Program-made: the position numbers and the translations under genes
In this document: positions 3,365 to 40,340 of the stretch, piece after piece
How positions within the stretch are numbered: position 1 is the stretch's first letter
Layout of the letters: the number at the start of each line of letters is the position of its first letter
The notes under the pieces: generated by a model
The model's input: only the letters and a program-made list of their open reading frames with translations
Databases searched by the model: none
Told to the model about the DNA's origin: nothing
NCBI GenBank assembly: GCA_012728115.1
Contig: JAAYFS010000055.1
Coordinates: forward strand, 11,779 to 75,778
Origin: Bacillota bacterium
Lineage (GTDB): Bacteria; Bacillota; Limnochordia; Darwinibacteriales; JAAYFS01
Direction of reading: 5' to 3'
DNA: 64,000 nt

Positions 3365-4150
3365 ATGGATCGAAAGTGGCTTGATAGGCAAGTTGAAGAA
3401 TTAGGAGAGGCTCTAGCTCAACAGAACCTGGCTTTGGCTGTTCCTGATTTATTTGAGAGTACCTTTAAGGCCAAGATAGAGAGCAATTTGGCAAGATTGA
3501 TTGACCATACTCTTTTAAAACCCGACGCAACTAAGGATGAAATCAAATCCCTCTGCCAAGAGGCAATCGAATATCAATTTGCTTCTGTTTGTGTCAATCC
3601 AAAGTTTGTTGCTTTTGCGTATGAATGTTTGCAAAATAGTGTGATCAAGATACCTGTTTGCACCGTTGTTGGTTTTCCTTTAGGTGCAAACACTACTTTA
3701 GTAAAGGTACTCGAAACTCGTGATGCAATCGCTAATGGTGCAACTGAAATCGATATGGTGCTTGCAATTTCCTCCTTGAAAGAGAAGGACTATGCCGCTG
3801 TTTATCAAGATATTGCTCAAGTAGTGGAGGCAGCAGGCGGTAATATTGTAAAAGTGATCCTGGAAACTTGTTACTTAACTAAGGAAGAGATTGTTAAGGC
3901 TAGTGTACTAGCGAGAATGGCAGGAGCATCTTTCGTTAAGACCTCAACAGGCTTCGGAAGCTATGGAGCCTTGGCGGAAGACGTGGCCCTAATGCGGAGA
4001 GTTGTAGGAGAAAGTATGGGAGTTAAAGCGTCGGGAGGAATAAGAGATCGTTCGACAGCTCTTCAAATGATTGAAGCTGGGGCGACCCGTATTGGAGCTA
4101 GCAAAGGCGTAGAAATAGTTACTGGAAAACCACAGAGCAAAAGTGGGTGA
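3365..4150 (+). CDS. deoC: deoxyribose-phosphate aldolase with an N-terminal extension of about 40 aa
   Basis: DeoC-type core: [17 protein letters not shown], the Schiff-base region FVKTSTGF and the C-terminal SGGIR. Confidence 0.8.
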
Positions 4151-4721
4151 TTACGATAACTGAACACTATTTTTCACAAAATCCGCAATCAAAAAGTACT
4201 CCTCATCGATTAGAAGAAGAGATCAAAGGACAGAGATTGAGAAAGGAACCAAGATCTTGCTTTCTGCTCTTGAACTTAATCCTGGTGAAACTGTTTTGGA
4301 TCTTGGGTGCGGTTATGGACCGATCGGGATTGTAGCTGCTAAAATGGTTGGTCCTCAAGGTAAGGTATACATGGTGGATATCAACGAACGAGCGGTAGAA
4401 TTAGCAAAACAAAATGCAACAATTAATGGCGTGGATAATGTTGATATTCGTGTAAATGACGGTTTGAACGGGTTAAATATTGATTTCGACTGTATAATTA
4501 CTAACCCGCCAATTAGGGCTGGAAAACAAGTGATATATAAAATGGTTGATGATGCCTACGAACGTTTAAAAGCTGAAGGGCGCTTGATCATGGTTATTCG
4601 CATGAAACAAGGAGCAAAAAGCATGGAACAAAAGCTCCAAGAACTATTTGATGAGGTACATACCATAGAGAGAAAATCGGGTTATCGCGTCCTATTAGCA
4701 CAAAAAATTACCTCCTCTTAG
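4147..4721 (+). pseudogene. RsmC/YbxB-like class I SAM-dependent methyltransferase split across two frames (frameshift or internal deletion)
   Basis: The N-terminal piece [17 protein letters not shown]...GQRL (frame 1) and the C-terminal piece LELNPGETVLDLGCGYG...ITNPP (frame 3, TTG at 4257) overlap. The expected TDxGVFS segment between them is missing. Confidence 0.5.
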
Positions 4722-5835: not shown

Positions 5836-5864
5836 TTGCCTAACCTAAGACTCTATGATATTAT
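5836..5864 (+). promoter_or_regulatory. candidate sigma-A promoter of the ADP-kinase-like gene
   Basis: TTGCCT (5836-5841), a 17-bp spacer and an extended -10 TGaTATTAT (5856-5864). Confidence 0.4.
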
Positions 5865-5922
5865 ATTTTAAGAGTTTATCGTTTATTATTGGAGGTATTA
5901 TCTAACTGGAGGTATTTTCTAA

Positions 5923-7359
5923 ATGGAAGCAGTCTGGGAACAAAGGGTTAAAGAAGCAGTAAAGCAAAAAATCACTGGTAGAATTTTTTCCGCATTTAAT
6001 ACTAATATAGATGTAATTGTTCATTTGAACAAACAAATTATTAAACAATGGATAGACTCTACAGAAGGCTGTACTGTAGAGGCTTTAAATTCTATAGACG
6101 TAGATAACCTCGAAGTAGTAAGAGATAAATTAGATTTCTTAGCAGTTATTAAAGATTGTTTAGGGAAGGGTAAGAGCTTCTACATTGTACTAGAAGATCT
6201 CTCTTTATTCGATTGGCTGGAGGAGAATACTCCTGCACGCAGAGAAGAAATGGGTGGACAAGCAGGAATTATCGCCAACCAAATGGCTGCTCTCGATGCT
6301 ACATCGGTAGTATATACCTCGCTTCTGTCACAAAAGCAAGCTAATCTTTTCTTCCCTGAAGTATTGACACCAGTGATTGATGATAATGGCTTAAAACTTA
6401 ATCCAGTAATCGAAAGTGCAAACAAAGAAGATAGTACCAAGATTAACTGGATCTTTGAATATGCAAAAGGCATAGAATTTGACTTTGGTGGCGAAAAAGT
6501 AATCACCCCGAGAGCAAATCGCGTAATTCTCTCAACTCGTCCTGAAGGTGCAGTAATGACCTTTAAAGGACAGGTAGCTGACCACTTACCAGAGTTAGGG
6601 GAAAAGATCGATGTTGCTTTTATGGCTGGCTATCACTACTGTCCAACCGAAGAAAAAGCAATGCAAGAATACCTCACTGATTGTATTGAGGGGTTAAGAA
6701 AATTAAAACAAAACAATTCTAATCTGCATTTACACTTCGAATATGTGCCAATGAAGGATCAAGAAGCAGAAAAGAAAATGCTAACAGCAGTAGCTCAAGA
6801 AATTCAATCCTTCGGTATTAACGAAAACGAGATCAAAAGAGTACTAGCTGGATTTGGTTTCCAAAAAGAAGCGGACGAGATCGAGAAAGACGAAAGAGCA
6901 TTCTCCTTATACGAAGGGGCCTTAAGGATAATGGAGACTCTTGGTTTCGAACGAATCCAAGTTCATAATCTAGGTTACTATGTCTTAGTGCTCAAAAAAC
7001 CTTATCCAGTAGCCTTAGATCAGGTGCGAGCTTCTTGTCTCTATGCGTCAGCAGTAAATGCCATTAAGGCTAAGTACGGCGGATACGTAAAAGCAGAACA
7101 AGTAAAAGAAGCAGCTTCATTTGGTCTATCCACTATCGGAATCGAACAAATAAAAGGTTTTGAGGCTGAAATGAAGAGAAAAGGTATAGTTGTTCCTGAT
7201 AACTTCCTGGAAGAAGGAATAATAGAGTACGACAACCATTACCTAATGATTGTTCCTGCCCATGTAGTCCCCAATCCTATTAGTACTGTAGGAATGGGTG
7301 CTACCATCTCATCTTCTTCGTATGCTTGCGAATTCAGCTACGTTAGTCAAATGCGATAA
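5923..7359 (+). CDS. ADP-dependent glucokinase/phosphofructokinase-family (archaeal-type ribokinase-superfamily) homolog
   Basis: Motifs present: the NxNxD motif FNTNID, MGGQAGIIANQM, KQANLFF, and C-terminal PISTVGMGATISSSSYACEFS at the position of the GXGD motif. An intrinsic terminator follows. Confidence 0.55.
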   Translation: MEAVWEQRVKEAVKQKITGRIFSAFNTNIDVIVHLNKQIIKQWIDSTEGCTVEALNSIDVDNLEVVRDKLDFLAVIKDCLGKGKSFYIVLEDLSLFDWLEENTPARREEMGGQAGIIANQMAALDATSVVYTSLLSQKQANLFFPEVLTPVIDDNGLKLNPVIESANKEDSTKINWIFEYAKGIEFDFGGEKVITPRANRVILSTRPEGAVMTFKGQVADHLPELGEKIDVAFMAGYHYCPTEEKAMQEYLTDCIEGLRKLKQNNSNLHLHFEYVPMKDQEAEKKMLTAVAQEIQSFGINENEIKRVLAGFGFQKEADEIEKDERAFSLYEGALRIMETLGFERIQVHNLGYYVLVLKKPYPVALDQVRASCLYASAVNAIKAKYGGYVKAEQVKEAASFGLSTIGIEQIKGFEAEMKRKGIVVPDNFLEEGIIEYDNHYLMIVPAHVVPNPISTVGMGATISSSSYACEFSYVSQMR

Positions 7360-7367
7360 AGTTGGAA

Positions 7368-7396
7368 ACTGCGGGATGTCTCGCAGTTTTCTTTTG
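7368..7396 (+). terminator. intrinsic terminator after the ADP-kinase-like gene
   Basis: ACTGCGG-GATGTC-TCGCAGT followed by TTTTCTTTT. Confidence 0.65.
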
Positions 7397-8439: not shown

Positions 8440-8865
8440 ATGAAGAGCATGAGAGCACTGATACTACATACCGAAGAACCAAAGACAATTAAATGGGCTA
8501 ATGCATTGAGAGATGCTTTAGCAACCCATAATTGCAAAGTGGATCTAGTTGTCGCCAAAGAAAACCATTCCACTCCGATAGGTACTTCCCAGTATCGCTT
8601 GATCATAATGTTATCAAATTTTTCTGGTCTATTTAAGCCAAAACTACCTAATGCGGTTGATGATGCTCTCAAGCAATGTTCTCGTGTCCAGGGTAAGAGA
8701 GGAGCGGCATTCCTACCTGCAAAGCTTGGTTCTACTAAGGCCTTGAAAAACTTAATGGAAAAAATGGAACAACAAGGAATATTTGTCGAAGATTTTGGAG
8801 CCATTCGAAACCAAGTACAAGTCGAGAAAATTGCTGAAAGGCTGATGAATCTCCTAAATCCATAA
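8440..8865 (+). CDS. hypothetical protein, possibly with a flavodoxin-like fold
   Basis: A 141-aa ORF with a proper gene context and a downstream hairpin. No diagnostic motif was recognised. Confidence 0.4.
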   Translation: MKSMRALILHTEEPKTIKWANALRDALATHNCKVDLVVAKENHSTPIGTSQYRLIIMLSNFSGLFKPKLPNAVDDALKQCSRVQGKRGAAFLPAKLGSTKALKNLMEKMEQQGIFVEDFGAIRNQVQVEKIAERLMNLLNP

Positions 8866-17565: not shown

Positions 17566-18675
17566 ATGGGAAAACAAACGAGGCCTGCATGGGTTGAAGT
17601 AAATCTAGCTAGCATTGCCTACAACGTTCAGTATTTCAAAAAATTGATCCATGAGAATTGTCAATTGTTGGCCGTCGTTAAAGCAAATGCTTATGGTCAT
17701 GGTGACTTAGCTGTTGTGAGAACAGCTTTATCCAATGGGGCTACTTGGATAGGAGTCGCTTTACCTGAAGAAGGAGTAAGATTAAGGCGAGCAGGGATCG
17801 CTGCTCCAATTTTGGTACTGGGTGCAGTTGGACAAGAACAACTAGAACTATGTGTTACTAAAGATCTCGCCTGTACGGTTTTTCAATGGAGTATTGCTCA
17901 AAGCCTCTCGAATCTTGCAATAAGATACAACAAAACAGTTAGAGTGCACTTAAAAATAGATACAGGTATGGGACGTTTAGGTATTTTACCTTCGGAAGCG
18001 TTACGATTTGCAATCGCGGTAAGTAGATTACCTGGAATTCAGATTCAAGGGATTCTTACTCATTTTGCGACTGCTGATCAACCAGAAGATCAATATGTTC
18101 ATTGGCAGTTAGAGCAATTTGAAAAAGTAATCGCTGAACTCAGCGCTCACCACATTAATATTCCAATTAAGCATTGTGCTAATACCTCTGCGGTGCTCTT
18201 TTTACCAGAGGCACATTTTGATTTGGTAAGAGTGGGAATCGGTTTGTATGGATTGCATCCCCAAGGGAAAAGAAGTAATTTACATCCCGCAATGAGTTTT
18301 AAGTGTCGGATAGCGGCAGCGCGTCGAGTACCAGCAGGGTCAGCGATTAGTTATGGAGCTAGTTATATTACCAAGAAGGAAACAACGATTGCAATTTTGC
18401 CTGTAGGATATGCAGATGGAGTTAGCCGTAGGCTAAGTAATCAGGGAGAGGTTTTGATCGATGGAAATAGGTTTCCGATCATAGGGAAGGTGTGTATGGA
18501 TCACTGCATGGTCGATGTCGGAGATTTTCCAATCGAAATCGGACAAGAAGTGACACTTATCGGACGTCAAGGGAATCAGGAAATAACAGTAGAAGACTGG
18601 GCAGATTGGTTAGGTACAATAAACTACGAGGTTCCTTGTATGATTAGTGAAAGGGTACCACGAATCTATACATGA
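17566..18675 (+). CDS. alr: alanine racemase
   Basis: The PLP-Lys motif AVVKANAYGHG is present. Length is 369 aa. Confidence 0.85.
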   Translation: MGKQTRPAWVEVNLASIAYNVQYFKKLIHENCQLLAVVKANAYGHGDLAVVRTALSNGATWIGVALPEEGVRLRRAGIAAPILVLGAVGQEQLELCVTKDLACTVFQWSIAQSLSNLAIRYNKTVRVHLKIDTGMGRLGILPSEALRFAIAVSRLPGIQIQGILTHFATADQPEDQYVHWQLEQFEKVIAELSAHHINIPIKHCANTSAVLFLPEAHFDLVRVGIGLYGLHPQGKRSNLHPAMSFKCRIAAARRVPAGSAISYGASYITKKETTIAILPVGYADGVSRRLSNQGEVLIDGNRFPIIGKVCMDHCMVDVGDFPIEIGQEVTLIGRQGNQEITVEDWADWLGTINYEVPCMISERVPRIYT

Positions 18676-26865: not shown

Positions 26866-28909
<2,044 letters not shown>

Positions 28910-28970
28910 GAAGCTAATACCAAGCCCCCTGTCTGGGGGCTCCCCATTTTAATGGCAAGGAGGAGATCAG

Positions 28971-30152
28971 ATGAATAAAAAGACAATTCGCGATCTTGAT
29001 TTTAATAACAAACGGGTGTTGACCAGAGTAGATTTTAATGTTCCAATGAAGGATGGAGTCATTACTGACGATAAAAGAATTACCGCAGCTTTACCAACCA
29101 TTAAATATCTCTCAGAGCAAGGTGGCAAGGTAATTTTAATGTCGCACTTTGGCAGACCCAAAGGTCAAGTTGTCGACTCAATGAGATTAGACCCAGTTGC
29201 AAAAAGACTTTCTGAACTTCTCGGTAAACCAGTTTTAAAGCTTGACGATTGCATCGGAGAAGAAGTTCAAAAAGCGCTCGAAGGCATGCAACCTGGCGAT
29301 GTTGCATTGTTAGAAAACGTTAGATTCTACGCTGAAGAAGAGAAGAACGATCCCGAGTTTGCTAAAAAACTTGCATCGCTTGGTGATGTATACGTGAACG
29401 ACGCTTTCGGTGCCGCACATAGAGCGCACGCTTCTACAGCAGGTGTAGCAGAATATCTACCAGCAGTATCTGGTTTCTTAATGGAAAAGGAACTCCAATT
29501 CTTAGGCGAAGCTGTTAATAATCCGAAGCGTCCATTTGTTGCCATTCTCGGCGGAGCAAAAGTATCCGATAAGATCGCAGTGATCACTTCTCTCTTAGAA
29601 AAGGTTGATACCTTGATCATTGGTGGAGGTATGGCATATACTTTCCTTAAAGCTAAGGGATATGAGATCGGTAAATCACTATTGGATGCAGAAAGAATCG
29701 AATTTTGCCAAGGCTTAATTAAAGATGCTGAAGCAAAAGGCGTTAAGTTACTTCTGCCAGTTGATGTAGTAGTAGCTTCGGAATTTTCGGCAGATGCAGA
29801 CAATAAGGTTGTAGACGCTGATCAAATCCCAGCTGATTGGGAAGGTTTAGATATCGGTCCTAAGACCAGAGAACTCTTTGCAGAAGCAATTAAAAGCGCC
29901 GCAACAGTTATTTGGAACGGACCAATGGGAGTATTTGAATTCCCAGCGTTTGCTAAAGGAACAACTGCAGTTGCTCAAGCTTTAGCAGATAGCGATGCGA
30001 TTACCGTAATCGGCGGTGGGGACTCAGCTGCTGCAGTAGAACAAGCTGGATTAGCTGAAAAAATGACCCATGTCTCAACTGGTGGTGGCGCATCCTTAGA
30101 GTTCTTAGAAGGAAAAGAATTACCAGGGGTCGCTGCTCTTGACGATAAGTAA
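28971..30152 (+). CDS. pgk: phosphoglycerate kinase
   Basis: A 393-aa protein with the canonical PGK N- and C-domain motifs. Confidence 0.9.
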
Positions 30153-30171
30153 TGAAACTAGAGGTGAAACA

Positions 30172-30927
30172 ATGCGAAAACCGCTCATTGCAGGTAACTG
30201 GAATATGCATAAGACAGTGGCGGAGGCGATTGAGGCTTGCCGCATCCTAGAAACTTTGGTCCAAGATGATCAAGTTGAGACTGTTATTTGCGCTCCATTT
30301 ACCTGTTTATCCGCGCTAGCTGCCCTAGGAATGAAGAAAGTTAAAATCGCTGCTCAAAATATGTTTTATGAAGAACAAGGTGCCTATACAGGGGAAATCT
30401 CTCCTGTAATGCTTCGCGACGTTGGTTGTGATTACGTTATTATCGGACATTCCGAACGCCGTGAATACTTTGGTGAAACTGATGAAACAGTAAACAAGAA
30501 AGTACATACAGCGTTGAAGTTCGATATCAAACCGATAGTCTGTGTTGGTGAAAGTTTAGAACAAAGAAAGAACGGGCAAACCGAATCCTTGGTTACTTCG
30601 CAAGTTGAGCAAGCTTTCTCAGGGGTAGATGAGGCAGATGCGCAAAAAATAGTAGTTGCTTACGAGCCTATTTGGGCGATCGGCACAGGCGAAACAGCTA
30701 GCGCCGAAGAAGCGAATAGAGTGATTAAAATAATCAGGGCTACACTTAAGAATCTTTATAGTGAAGAAGTAGCCGCAAATATCAGAATCCAATATGGTGG
30801 CAGTGTCAAACTCGAAAACATCAAAGAATTGATGGAGCAATCTGATATTGATGGTGCTTTAGTCGGAGGTGCAAGTTTAAATCCTGAGACTTTTGCATCG
30901 ATGATAAACTATAAATCTCTAAAATAG
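30172..30927 (+). CDS. tpiA: triosephosphate isomerase
   Basis: MRKPLIAGNWNMHKT and AYEPIWAIGTG are present. The start is ATG 30172 with RBS GAGGTG. Confidence 0.9.
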   Translation: MRKPLIAGNWNMHKTVAEAIEACRILETLVQDDQVETVICAPFTCLSALAALGMKKVKIAAQNMFYEEQGAYTGEISPVMLRDVGCDYVIIGHSERREYFGETDETVNKKVHTALKFDIKPIVCVGESLEQRKNGQTESLVTSQVEQAFSGVDEADAQKIVVAYEPIWAIGTGETASAEEANRVIKIIRATLKNLYSEEVAANIRIQYGGSVKLENIKELMEQSDIDGALVGGASLNPETFASMINYKSLK

Positions 30928-30953
30928 TTGTAGCAGTGAGAGGAGGTCGCAAT

Positions 30954-33784
<2,831 letters not shown>

Positions 33785-38765: not shown

Positions 38766-40340
38766 ATGATGATGAGAAAACCGATCGTATTGGTGGTAAT
38801 GGACGGTATTGGGAAGGGCAAAGGGGATTTTAGTGATGCTGTTAGTTTAGCCAATACACCCACTCTCGATATGTTAATGACTAATTATCCAAACATCTTA
38901 ATTAAGGCACATGGTACTGCTGTCGGGTTACCTTCTGATGCTGATATGGGAAACAGCGAAGTAGGGCATAACGCGTTGGGATGCGGACAAATCTATTCTC
39001 AAGGAGCGAAGTTAGTAAATGAAAGTATTGAAAGAGGAGAAATCTTTGAATCTGATGTTTGGCATGAAGTGATCTCAAATTGTCTTAACAATAATTCCAT
39101 CTTACATTTTATCGGACTTTTATCTGATGGGAATGTTCACTCGAATATCAATCACTTAAAGTCGATGATCATCAAAGCCAAAGAAAGCAATGTAACCAAA
39201 GTCAGGGTTCATATTCTACTCGATGGTCGTGATGTTCCAGCTACTTCTGCTCTTGAATACGTTGATGATCTAGAAAGCCTGCTTGCAGAACTTAATTGCG
39301 ATAACTTCGATGCTCGCATAGCCTCTGGTGGAGGTAGGATGAAAATTACGATGGATAGATATCAAGCAAACTGGGATATGGTAAGACTAGGTTGGGAAAC
39401 GCATGTGCTTGGTGAGGGTAGACAGTTTACTTCTGCTCTTGAGGCTATCAAGTCGTATCGCGAGGAATTTAACGTGATCGATCAAGATCTTCCGCCTTTT
39501 GTGATCGCTGAAAATGGAAATCCTGTTGGAAGAATGAATGATGGCGATAGCGTAATCTTTTTTAATTTCCGTGGTGATCGGGCAATTGAAATAAGTATTG
39601 CCTTCGACTATCAAGATTTTGATAAATTTGATCGGAAGTATGTTCCAAAGGTGGTTTACGCAGGGATGCTTCAGTATGATGGAGACATCAATGTTCCCAA
39701 GAAATATCTTGTTAGTCCGCCAAACATCAAAAACACCTTGTCAGAGCTATTGGTGGAACATAGGATAAAGCAATATGCTGTATCGGAGACCCAAAAGTAT
39801 GGGCATATGACCTACTTTTGGAATGGAAATAGGAGTGGAAAGTTTAGCGATGAGCTGGAAGTGTTTTATGAAGTACCATCGGATCAGGTGCCTTTTGAAC
39901 AGCGTCCTTGGATGAAAGCAGCAGAAATAACTGATAAAGTAATTGAAGCGATTGAATCGGGAGAATACGGCTTCATCCGTTGTAATTATCCAAACGGTGA
40001 TATGGTAGGGCATACTGGCAACATTGATGCGACAATTATCGGTGTAGAAGCAGTTGACTTAGGTTTGGCAAGAATACTAGAGGCTGTCACCAAAAAAGAT
40101 GCAATCCTAATTGTAACAGCTGATCATGGCAATGCGGATGATATGGTAGAGATTGATAAATCGGGGAATCTGCAAATGAAAACCGCTCATTCGCTGAACC
40201 CCGTACCTTTTATTATCTTTGACAAAAACAAGGCATACAGTATTAAACCAGGTAATTATGGACTCGCGAACGTAGCTCCCACCATCGCTCGCTTATTCAA
40301 TCTAGACATACCAAAGCATTGGGAGGAGAGTATGGTATAG
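38766..40340 (+). CDS. second, divergent 2,3-bisphosphoglycerate-independent phosphoglycerate mutase paralog
   Basis: The 524-aa protein has iPGM motifs (VLVVMDGIG, NSEVGH, LLDGRDV, ADHGNADDM). It is far more divergent than the operon copy at 30954..32498. Confidence 0.8.
   Translation: MMMRKPIVLVVMDGIGKGKGDFSDAVSLANTPTLDMLMTNYPNILIKAHGTAVGLPSDADMGNSEVGHNALGCGQIYSQGAKLVNESIERGEIFESDVWHEVISNCLNNNSILHFIGLLSDGNVHSNINHLKSMIIKAKESNVTKVRVHILLDGRDVPATSALEYVDDLESLLAELNCDNFDARIASGGGRMKITMDRYQANWDMVRLGWETHVLGEGRQFTSALEAIKSYREEFNVIDQDLPPFVIAENGNPVGRMNDGDSVIFFNFRGDRAIEISIAFDYQDFDKFDRKYVPKVVYAGMLQYDGDINVPKKYLVSPPNIKNTLSELLVEHRIKQYAVSETQKYGHMTYFWNGNRSGKFSDELEVFYEVPSDQVPFEQRPWMKAAEITDKVIEAIESGEYGFIRCNYPNGDMVGHTGNIDATIIGVEAVDLGLARILEAVTKKDAILIVTADHGNADDMVEIDKSGNLQMKTAHSLNPVPFIIFDKNKAYSIKPGNYGLANVAPTIARLFNLDIPKHWEESMV

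Follow-up and report, generated by a model that had tools for sequence, protein, structure and literature searches.

ADP-dependent sugar kinases are described in the literature as consisting of a ribokinase-like large domain and a small lid domain. For AncMsPFK, G115 and Q116 were assigned as contacts of the sugar ring, and K179 and N181 as the residues binding the phosphate of fructose 6-phosphate (F6P), the latter two being kept only in phosphofructokinase (PFK)-specific and bifunctional enzymes (PMC7948494). R206 is an Arg conserved family-wide, and R212 is a marker of PFKs and bifunctional enzymes (PMC7948494). Glucose binding is attributed to a Glu at the position of AncMsPFK E90 (E72 in ancMT), specific glucokinases have a His at the position of N181, and the Asp of the GXGD motif acts as the catalytic base (PMC7948494). 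The occurrence of the family in bacteria was stated in the same 2020 paper (PMC7948494). In the literature searched, no characterised bacterial member was apparent and nothing was found on members from Limnochordia; a search for the quantitative effect of mutating the Asp was likewise unproductive.

Here, we analysed a gene from a metagenome assembly of a Limnochordia bacterium, situated in a stretch of 64 kb that is referred to as the window. The gene very probably represents the local orthologue of a conserved Limnochordia ADP-dependent sugar-phosphate kinase, with the Ala at position 460 being either a private null or hypomorphic allele or a consensus error.

Family assignment

The gene under study is:
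5923..7359, + strand: ADP-dependent sugar(-phosphate) kinase gene, protein NLY11642.1, locus tag GX020_08165, 478 aa, ATG to TAA, PF04587, with a phosphofructokinase-type residue signature

A Pfam search with this ORF yielded PF04587 (ADP_PFK_GK) with an E-value of 7.8e-67 and 226 bits (cut-off 27), and the match is full-length, with residues 20-467 covering positions 2-428 of the 430-position profile. The top NCBIfam match was the ADP-PFK model TIGR02045 with 292.6 bits, which is below its equivalog cut-off of 408.1 bits, and the glucokinase models scored about 157. With phmmer, the best PDB match was AncMsPFK (6c8z, E 4e-76). The overall fold of an AlphaFold (AF2) model of the protein (pLDDT 94.5, pTM 0.92) agrees with the solved ADP-dependent kinases, which occupy Foldseek ranks 1-22 throughout, 6c8z being first; TM was 0.81-0.85 for the best archaeal matches, followed by ribokinase and adenosine kinases at about 0.4. 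The ORF belongs to the archaeal-type ADP-dependent sugar kinases, as a preliminary description of the locus had supposed from four motifs, all of which are present, and is an ordinary bacterial representative of them. Its nearest solved relatives are ADP-phosphofructokinases of the Methanosarcinales type. The GC content of the gene (0.38) resembles that of its surroundings (0.38-0.43), so that there is no sign of recent transfer and a foreign composition was ruled out.

Among known enzymes, AncMsPFK and the ADP-PFKs of Methanosarcinales (6c8z, 6xio; EC 2.7.1.146) are the best match both by sequence and in Foldseek. The kinase has in common with AncMsPFK the NxNxD, GGQ and HxE motifs as well as K179, N181, R206 and R212, and its residues 402-445 align to AncMsPFK without gaps, a segment with a deletion or a poor alignment in the case of ancMT, the M. 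jannaschii enzyme and the P. horikoshii PFK. It differs from AncMsPFK in that the two are only about 30% identical, in its bacterial host, in the replacement of E90 by Y87 (Tyr, His, Leu or Phe in the bacterial relatives) and of Q244 by an invariant His238, and in the Ala that stands for Asp471 in the window assembly. The ADP-specific PFK of Pyrococcus horikoshii (1u2x, 3drw) belongs to the same family and has the same fold; neither this enzyme (GKPAAV) nor the kinase (GKSFYIV) contains the glucose-marker Glu, and both carry the K, N and R markers of F6P-phosphate binding (PMC7948494). It is, however, more distant (E 1e-52) and does not have the C-terminal insert. The ADP-glucokinases of Thermococcus litoralis, Pyrococcus and mouse/human (ADPGK) likewise share the Pfam family, the fold and the GXGD/NxNxD/HxE scaffold, but give far weaker scores (E 1e-34 or worse), and the kinase differs from them in lacking the Glu that corresponds to E90 and in having Asn, not His, at the position of N181.

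Active-site residues

The motifs of the kinase are located as follows:
5995..6012, + strand: FNTNID, the NxNxD sugar-binding motif, aa 25-30; N26, N28 and D30 correspond to AncMsPFK N32, N34 and D36
6250..6285, + strand: MGGQAGIIANQM, aa 110-121; G112 and Q113 correspond to AncMsPFK G115 and Q116
6439..6462, + strand: KINWIFEY; K173 and N175 correspond to AncMsPFK K179 and N181
6508..6540, + strand: PRANRVILSTR; R200 and R206 correspond to AncMsPFK R206 and R212
6733..6741, + strand: HxE motif, H271-F-E273; neither residue varies within the bacterial clade
7276..7338, + strand: C-terminal block PISTVGMGATISSSSYACEFS, aa 452-472, with the GXGD motif changed from D to A
7300..7302, + strand: codon 460, GCT (Ala), at the catalytic-base position of GXGD

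The NxNxD motif, the GGQ loop and the conserved Arg were all found (N26, N28, D30, G112, Q113, R200); in an alignment of 29 sequences of the clade N28 is conserved to at least 90% and the other five are invariant. KQANLFF lies at aa 138-144. The markers of PFKs and bifunctional enzymes, K179, N181 and R212, are present as K173, N175 and R206, while those of glucokinases and of bifunctional GK/PFK enzymes are absent, as Y87 takes the place of the Glu and N175 that of the His. None of the 72 relatives from other species that cover the E90 site contains a Glu there; Tyr, His, Leu or Phe was found instead. AncMsPFK Q244 corresponds to H238 and D471 to A460, and apart from position 460 the catalytic and sugar-binding residues are intact. 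The signature of K173, N175 and R206 together with the missing glucose-marker Glu points to a phosphofructokinase-type enzyme. As a separate observation, two phosphate-contact positions are unlike those of the archaeal enzymes, namely Y87 for E90 and H238 for Q244.

In the form carrying Asp460, N26, N28, D30, G112 and Q113 would hold the sugar ring, and the 6-phosphate would be bound by K173 and N175 with R206 nearby, R200 being the counterpart of the family-wide Arg. The phosphoryl group would be supplied by Mg-ADP with the HxE motif (H271/E273), and Asp460 of GXGD would serve as the general base deprotonating the acceptor hydroxyl. Given these residue roles, the enzyme would most likely phosphorylate fructose 6-phosphate, or a ketose phosphate resembling it, in an ADP-dependent reaction. 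The substrate is thus predicted from the residues only; ADP is likewise the predicted donor, and a strongly reduced or abolished activity would be expected of the D460A form. Since at least one related organism (L092) has a canonical PfkA next to pyk, the physiological substrate could also be another sugar phosphate.

Position 460 in other assemblies and in homologues

The kinase was aligned pairwise with five solved ADP-dependent kinases by HMMER. In all five alignments GMGATIS falls on G[IL]GDTIS without gaps, which places A460 on the Asp of GXGD, so that the change from GXGD to GXGA noted in the preliminary description was read correctly: the window protein has GMGA where the family has its catalytic base. 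At the DNA level, GCT differs from GAT by one transversion, A to C at base 7301. Four further assemblies of the species have A at this base (GAT, Asp); C is confined to the window assembly. The conspecific protein P0121, encoded in two ENA assemblies, is the same as that of the window except for D460. Window and conspecific contig L001 show 99.86% DNA identity across a 13.1-kb block containing the kinase gene; of their 28 SNPs in 17 kb a single one, at 7301, lies in the 1437 bp of the gene. L002 and L003 also have A at 7301, and the 3'-terminal 776 nt of the gene region, present in the Logan contig L091, match the window except at this base.

Beyond the species, the motif reads GMGD in 119 of 119 other homologues listed and GxGD in 77 of 77 motif-covering relatives from other GTDB species, paralogues included, and of the family-wide 50%-cluster representatives, 141 extend over the motif and 140 of these have the Asp. 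The orthologues in MAGs of Limnochordia and other Bacillota, which bear the PGAP name 'ADP-dependent glucokinase/phosphofructokinase' and are 50-65% identical to the kinase, lie in the same synteny block behind the same promoter-like element and have the Asp in GMGD throughout; only the copy of the window MAG has Ala. D460A is therefore private to one metagenome assembly and does not characterise the lineage or the family: with Asp in the conspecific assemblies and the homologues, the failure at GXGD belongs to one allele or assembly and not to the gene lineage. A D-to-A change at the level of the lineage was rejected on the tails of the 119 homologues, the 77 relatives from other species and the 141 family representatives. 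Decay or relaxed constraint was rejected as well: of the 50 columns without variation in the other 119 sequences, 460 is the sole one at which the window protein differs, and the gene has one SNP in 1437 bp relative to the conspecific contig L001.

Origin of the Ala460 allele

A singleton change of one base, with no drift at other conserved residues, speaks against an evolved pseudo-kinase and in favour of either a consensus error or an allele private to this assembly. These two origins were rated about equally likely. There is close to an even chance that GAT is what the organism itself has and that the MAG shows C at 7301 through a sequencing or consensus error. In favour of an error, the window has 11 private SNPs in about 16 kb, ten of them transitions and the one at 7301 the sole transversion; the residue is one that is invariant in the bacterial clade, with Asp in all but one of the family representatives; and the assembly contains a second private disruptive lesion. 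The latter is a 43-nt deletion at 4226/4227, 3 kb upstream, which lies between 11-nt direct repeats and frameshifts a methyltransferase. Moreover, 16 of the 120 metagenome-derived homologue sequences show at least one singleton deviation at otherwise invariant columns, and such one-offs are thus common background. On the other hand, the strain of the window is truly distinct: its private SNPs are mostly ordinary transitions, synonymous or conservative, and their density is far above that of typical consensus errors, so that real private variants do exist in it.

The same density is consistent with true strain divergence and hence with a real loss-of-function or hypomorphic allele, a recent mutation in a dispensable kinase at the level of the strain, to which we give a chance somewhat short of even. 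Related organisms have 2-3 paralogues and at least one of them a canonical PfkA, so that a loss could be tolerated, and the 43-nt lesion nearby would fit a strain accumulating deleterious variants. Against such an allele speak the absence of further decay (0 other differences in 1437 bp), the transversion, which is atypical among the private SNPs of the strain, and the fact that no paralogue lies in the window. Indeed, tblastn found no second copy of the kinase there, and a compensating copy within the 64 kb was therefore rejected; in related genomes the paralogues lie at a distance of about 19 kb, towards the side not contained in the window.

Genomic context

The kinase gene is surrounded by the following features:
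3365..4150: DeoC, Pfam PF01791
4780..5826, + strand: alanine-racemase-fold (PLP fold type III) protein, Orr-like, upstream of the kinase
5836..5864, + strand: promoter-like TTGCCT-17-TATTAT with upstream TG (extended -10), in the 96-bp gap
5890..5923, + strand: 17-nt tandem duplication TGGAGGTATT[A/T]TCTAA[C/A] with two GGAGG Shine-Dalgarno boxes, in the 96-bp gap
7364..7391, + strand: terminator-like hairpin of 12 pairs followed by a T-run, directly 3' of the stop codon
7484..8431: prs, between the kinase and 8440..8865
8440..8865, + strand: 141-aa protein without a Pfam family; among downstream neighbours of the kinase it is the one that orthologous loci retain most constantly

Both elements that had been proposed for the 96-bp gap, a promoter and a duplicated Shine-Dalgarno block, were found. 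The arrangement TTGnCn ... TGnTAnnAT is also present upstream of kinase orthologues in other species. The duplicated block is a true tandem duplication, with its second GGAGG box 10 nt 5' of the ATG; it is identical in L001, the one conspecific contig checked, and was not seen in the other species compared.

The upstream neighbour had been taken for an alanine-racemase-fold, ornithine-racemase-like protein. Ala_racemase_N is indeed its sole Pfam domain, and ornithine racemase Orr (NF040742) is its best NCBIfam match, with 271 bits against a cut-off of 480; a search by sequence gave no solved homologue. The link that had been suggested between this gene and the kinase proved weak. Participation of both in one pathway, for instance with an amino-sugar or amino-acid-derived substrate, is quite improbable. 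It would agree with about a dozen orthologous loci of other species in which the Orr-like gene immediately precedes the kinase in the same orientation. Against it, the kinase is served by a conserved promoter of its own and by a terminator, the Orr-like gene was not detected in some of the orthologous loci, L007 and L008 have an Amidase_3 gene immediately 5' of the kinase, and other loci have a LigB/AMMECR1-domain gene and a radical-SAM gene separating racemase and kinase. Furthermore, the whole block is mixed housekeeping synteny comprising M16 peptidases, 5-FTHF cyclo-ligase, DeoC and a methyltransferase, with CdaA and GlmM further on. The pairing of the Orr-like gene with the kinase is not constant. 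An operon of the kinase with the Orr-like gene or with prs is not supported either, given the separate promoter and terminator and the variation among orthologous loci.

The DeoC gene was also considered as an archaeal class-I FBP aldolase partner of the kinase. This was set aside on the basis of PF01791 and of what we take, by eye, to be typical deoxyribose-phosphate aldolase motifs.

Discussion

The replaced Asp had originally led to the proposal of a pseudo-kinase, a sugar-phosphate binding protein or an enzyme with different chemistry. A selected Ala460 in a regulator that binds sugar phosphate or ADP, or in an enzyme using another base, is very improbable and this reading is largely refuted, for although Ala really occupies the catalytic-base position and the retained ligand-binding residues make binding without turnover physically plausible, Ala is absent from the four conspecific assemblies and from the homologues, relatives and 140 of 141 representatives examined, it is accompanied by no other change at conserved sites, and the gene otherwise shows zero divergence from the allele bearing Asp. 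A pseudo-kinase would be marked by catalytic loss across a lineage, usually together with active-site drift, and what was found is a singleton with no other deviation. Equally, there is hardly any chance that Ala460 is genuine and maintained, which would make the protein a dead F6P/ADP binder, a natural pseudo-kinase at the very start of its evolution.

Less far-reaching, more probable and beyond the kinase gene itself is the reading that the paralogue groups of Limnochordia-type Bacillota may include ADP-dependent kinases for substrates besides F6P and glucose. In these paralogue groups altered sugar-site residues were observed, and in L095 and L096 the gene overlaps a class-II aldolase gene.

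The family had been called rare in bacteria. This holds across phyla and does not hold within Limnochordia-type Bacillota, where it is common, often with 2-3 paralogues per genome.

For the kinase itself, a conserved enzyme with a private allele or a consensus error at one base, one conspecific contig settled the question of the missing Asp. The case thus calls for caution: a catalytic residue missing in a single MAG does not amount to a new function before orthologues or, failing that, conspecific assemblies have been checked. What the Limnochordia-like kinases phosphorylate, and what they do alongside a bacterial-type glycolysis operon, are modest rather than pressing questions. For the family as a whole, the ADP-dependent sugar kinases emerge as a well-conserved, multi-paralogue family in the Limnochordia-like Bacillota of anaerobic digesters and sediments.

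Family assignment and catalytic motif

The kinase gene encodes a protein in which each of the four motifs quoted in the preliminary description could be located:

5923..7359, + strand, kinase ORF, ATG to TAA, 478 aa
7300..7302, + strand, codon 460, GCT (Ala), aligned with the Asp of GXGD
Residues 25-30, FNTNID motif
Residues 110-121, MGGQAGIIANQM motif
Residues 138-144, KQANLFF motif
Residues 452-472, PISTVGMGATISSSSYACEFS motif

ADP_PFK_GK (PF04587) spans residues 20-467 with an E-value of 7.8e-67 at near-complete profile coverage (positions 2-428 of 430; Pfam), confirming the proposed membership in the ADP-dependent kinase family. The top NCBIfam model was TIGR02045 (ADP-specific phosphofructokinase), whose score of 292.6 bits is below the equivalog cut-off of 408.1, yet well above those of the two glucokinase models (approximately 157 bits). 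Sequence comparison against solved structures ranked 6c8z, the reconstructed Methanosarcinales ADP-PFK ancestor AncMsPFK, first (E 4e-76), followed by ancMT, the bifunctional M. jannaschii enzyme and the P. horikoshii PFK, with glucokinases being far weaker. The same ADP-dependent kinases were returned by Foldseek (TM 0.81-0.85) for an AlphaFold2 model built from 29 homologues (pLDDT 94.5, pTM 0.92). The GC content of the gene is in line with that of its surroundings. The protein is an uncharacterised new member of an already known family, for which the searchable literature apparently contains no characterised bacterial representative.

In all pairwise alignments to solved kinases, GMGATIS of the query aligns gap-free on G[IL]GDTIS. 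Ala460 therefore stands where GXGD has its Asp, a residue that in AncMsPFK is strictly conserved and represents the catalytic base (PMC7948494), and the D-to-A change noticed earlier is exact.

Occurrence and origin of Ala460

A homologue search of 5.8 billion proteins yielded 120 listed proteins with bit scores of 435-1071, and all 119 other proteins among these listed matches contain GMGD. The second full-length member of the 90% cluster (P0121, from two ENA assemblies) shares 477 of its 478 residues with the window protein and differs by D460 alone. L001 (ERZ18327520), a contig from another assembly of the same species, is 99.86% identical to the window over a 13.1-kb block with the kinase gene and 99.76% identical over another 4.2 kb; both aligned blocks together contain 28 SNPs. 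The single SNP within the 1437-bp kinase gene is at base 7301 (window C, GCT; L001 A, GAT), and the A is also found in the conspecific contigs L002 (ERZ2647963) and L003 (ERZ2648073). Likewise, in a fourth data set, the 3′ 776 nt of L091, a 1637-bp Logan contig (ERR6222553; protein P0002), equal the window except at 7301. In its 5′ half, L091 looks like another species (P0017-like), with approximately 25-60 differences from the window in every 100 nt; it is thus either a recombinant or a chimeric assembly, and the junction falls within a conserved part of the kinase gene.

GxGD is also kept in all 77 motif-covering relatives from other GTDB species representatives, two further paralogue groups included, and Asp is present in 140 of the 141 motif-covering representatives of a family-wide set (50% clusters from 1.84 billion proteins). 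Of the 50 columns without variation among the other 119 homologues, 460 is the only one at which the window protein departs. As a control, at least one singleton deviation at such columns was found in 16 of the 120 sequences, and one-off changes at conserved sites are therefore normal background in metagenome-derived proteins. Ala460 is private to a single allele or assembly.

Relative to L001-L003, the window has 11 private SNPs in approximately 16 kb and represents a slightly distinct strain of its species. Ten of these SNPs are transitions, the sole transversion being 7301. Also private is a 43-nt deletion at 4226/4227, lying between a pair of 11-nt direct repeats (AGGACAGAGAT); it is either a real repeat-mediated event or a misassembly. 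It frameshifts an MTS-family (RsmC/PrmC-like) methyltransferase of 205 aa in L001-L003:

4257..4721, methyltransferase remnant, TTG-started, 154 aa, truncated by the 43-nt deletion

This pair of private, disruptive lesions, lying within 3 kb of each other, is compatible with a less accurate consensus having produced both of them, and to about the same degree with a strain that bears deleterious variants, 7301 and the deletion among them. A genuine, maintained pseudo-kinase allele is very improbable, and the notion of a kinase homologue whose evolution dispensed with the catalytic base is not supported: Asp is present in P0121, L001-L003, L091 and 119 of 119 homologues, the conspecific allele is intact and the kinase gene is otherwise free of signs of decay. 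Whether allele or artefact, Ala460 is not an evolved feature.

Predicted substrate and mechanism

Residues were mapped by alignment to AncMsPFK.

Sugar-site and catalytic residues of AncMsPFK, their window counterparts and their roles (roles from PMC7948494)
N32, N34, D36: N26, N28, D30; NxNxD motif, in which N32 and N34 touch the phosphate and D36 the sugar ring
E90: Y87; Glu conserved in glucose-using enzymes only
G115, Q116: G112, Q113; sugar-ring contacts
K179, N181: K173, N175; F6P phosphate binders, conserved in PFK-specific and bifunctional enzymes only
R206: R200; Arg conserved family-wide
R212: R206; marker of PFK/bifunctional enzymes
Q244: H238; contacts the phosphate in the archaeal enzyme, always His in the window protein's clade
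D471: A460; catalytic base

Glu at the E90 position was never found in the bacterial relatives compared. With the PFK markers kept and this Glu lacking, the signature points to a phosphofructokinase-type ADP-dependent kinase, not a glucokinase, with F6P-type substrate and ADP donor as predictions. In the Asp460 form, sugar phosphate and Mg-ADP would bind and the domains then close; Asp460 would remove the proton of the acceptor hydroxyl, and ADP would then donate its phosphoryl group to the acceptor. The Ala460 form should keep ligand binding and turn over very slowly.

Expression signals and genomic context

5836..5864, promoter-like element TTGCCT-17-TATTAT with upstream TG, ahead of the kinase gene
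5890..5923, 17-nt tandem duplication (Shine-Dalgarno block)
7364..7391, 12-bp hairpin and T-run after the kinase stop codon

Promoter-like sites are no more numerous in this region than in shuffled controls. The previously noticed site ahead of the kinase gene was recovered, and its TTGnCn ... TGnTAnnAT arrangement is also present upstream of orthologues in other species, which supports the element as real. Together with the hairpin and T-run it suggests that the gene is probably monocistronic. The "oddly duplicated" Shine-Dalgarno block is a true tandem duplication, identical in L001 and absent in the other species compared; it looks neutral, with the second copy serving the ATG.

The block comprises, in order, M16 peptidases, 5-FTHF cyclo-ligase, DeoC, the methyltransferase, the ornithine racemase (Orr)-like gene, the kinase, prs, a 141-aa unknown, NadE, class-V aminotransferase, HAD, CdaA, GlmM and GlmS; this synteny of mixed housekeeping genes is retained around orthologues with at least 50% identity. 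In approximately 12 species the Orr-like gene is the immediate upstream neighbour of the kinase. At several orthologous loci (e.g., L023, 3375-5841) LigB/AMMECR1-domain (PF02900 + PF01871) and radical-SAM genes lie between both; at still others no Orr-like gene was detected, and L007 and L008 have an Amidase_3 gene directly upstream of the kinase. prs adjoins the kinase in the closest relatives only, and more distant paralogues have unrelated contexts. Given such variable neighbours, the case for the kinase and the racemase-fold protein working as a pair is poor, and the link raised by their adjacency is weak. As an Orr equivalog this protein was rejected (271 bits, cut-off 480); a separate full-length alanine racemase gene is located at 17566..18675. 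The 141-aa protein (8440..8865) belongs to no Pfam family. Of all downstream neighbours it is the one found most constantly at orthologous loci, and it also adjoins a few more distant kinase paralogues.

Distribution and paralogues

The earlier description of the family as rare in bacteria holds only in part. Overall the family comprises few members (441 clusters at 50% identity, E <=1e-3, from 1.84 billion proteins), but in Limnochordia-type Bacillota MAGs PF04587 kinases are common, often with two to three paralogues per genome. Bacterial members are already mentioned in PMC7948494. Same-contig pairs (L011/L056, L071/L074, L018/L080, L085/L067) are often approximately 19 kb apart, and one MAG has three paralogues (L021/L088/L052). 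By sugar-site residues, three groups are distinguished, K-x-N-W (that of the window), K-x-N-[YF] and [HR]-x-P-W, the last of which lacks Lys and Asn for the F6P phosphate; GxGD is kept in all three, and the glucose-marker Glu occurs in none. P0105, of the [HR]-x-P-W group, overlaps the end of a class-II aldolase gene (PF01116) by 4 nt (L095, 3003-5341; L096, 400-2738), with a ROK regulator and a GFO/IDH/MocA oxidoreductase upstream in L095, which suggests an ADP-dependent ketose-phosphate kinase/bisphosphate aldolase pair for a non-fructose sugar.

The window contains a complete, typical Firmicutes cggR-gap(A)-pgk-tpi(A)-pgm (iPGM)-eno operon (26866..33784) and, 5 kb downstream, a second iPGM paralogue (38766..40340). 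In L092 (3798-6258), from a related organism, canonical PfkA (PF00365) and pyruvate kinase are encoded near the PF04587 paralogue P0115. Since PfkA and such a paralogue occur in one organism, ADP-dependent kinases are not a simple replacement of classical PFK in this lineage. The sole non-Asp representative of the family-wide set, P0163 (484 aa, 31% identical with the window protein), reads TAGLGSVFS, with Ser for Asp, and would be the place to look if a real Asp-less clade exists in the family.
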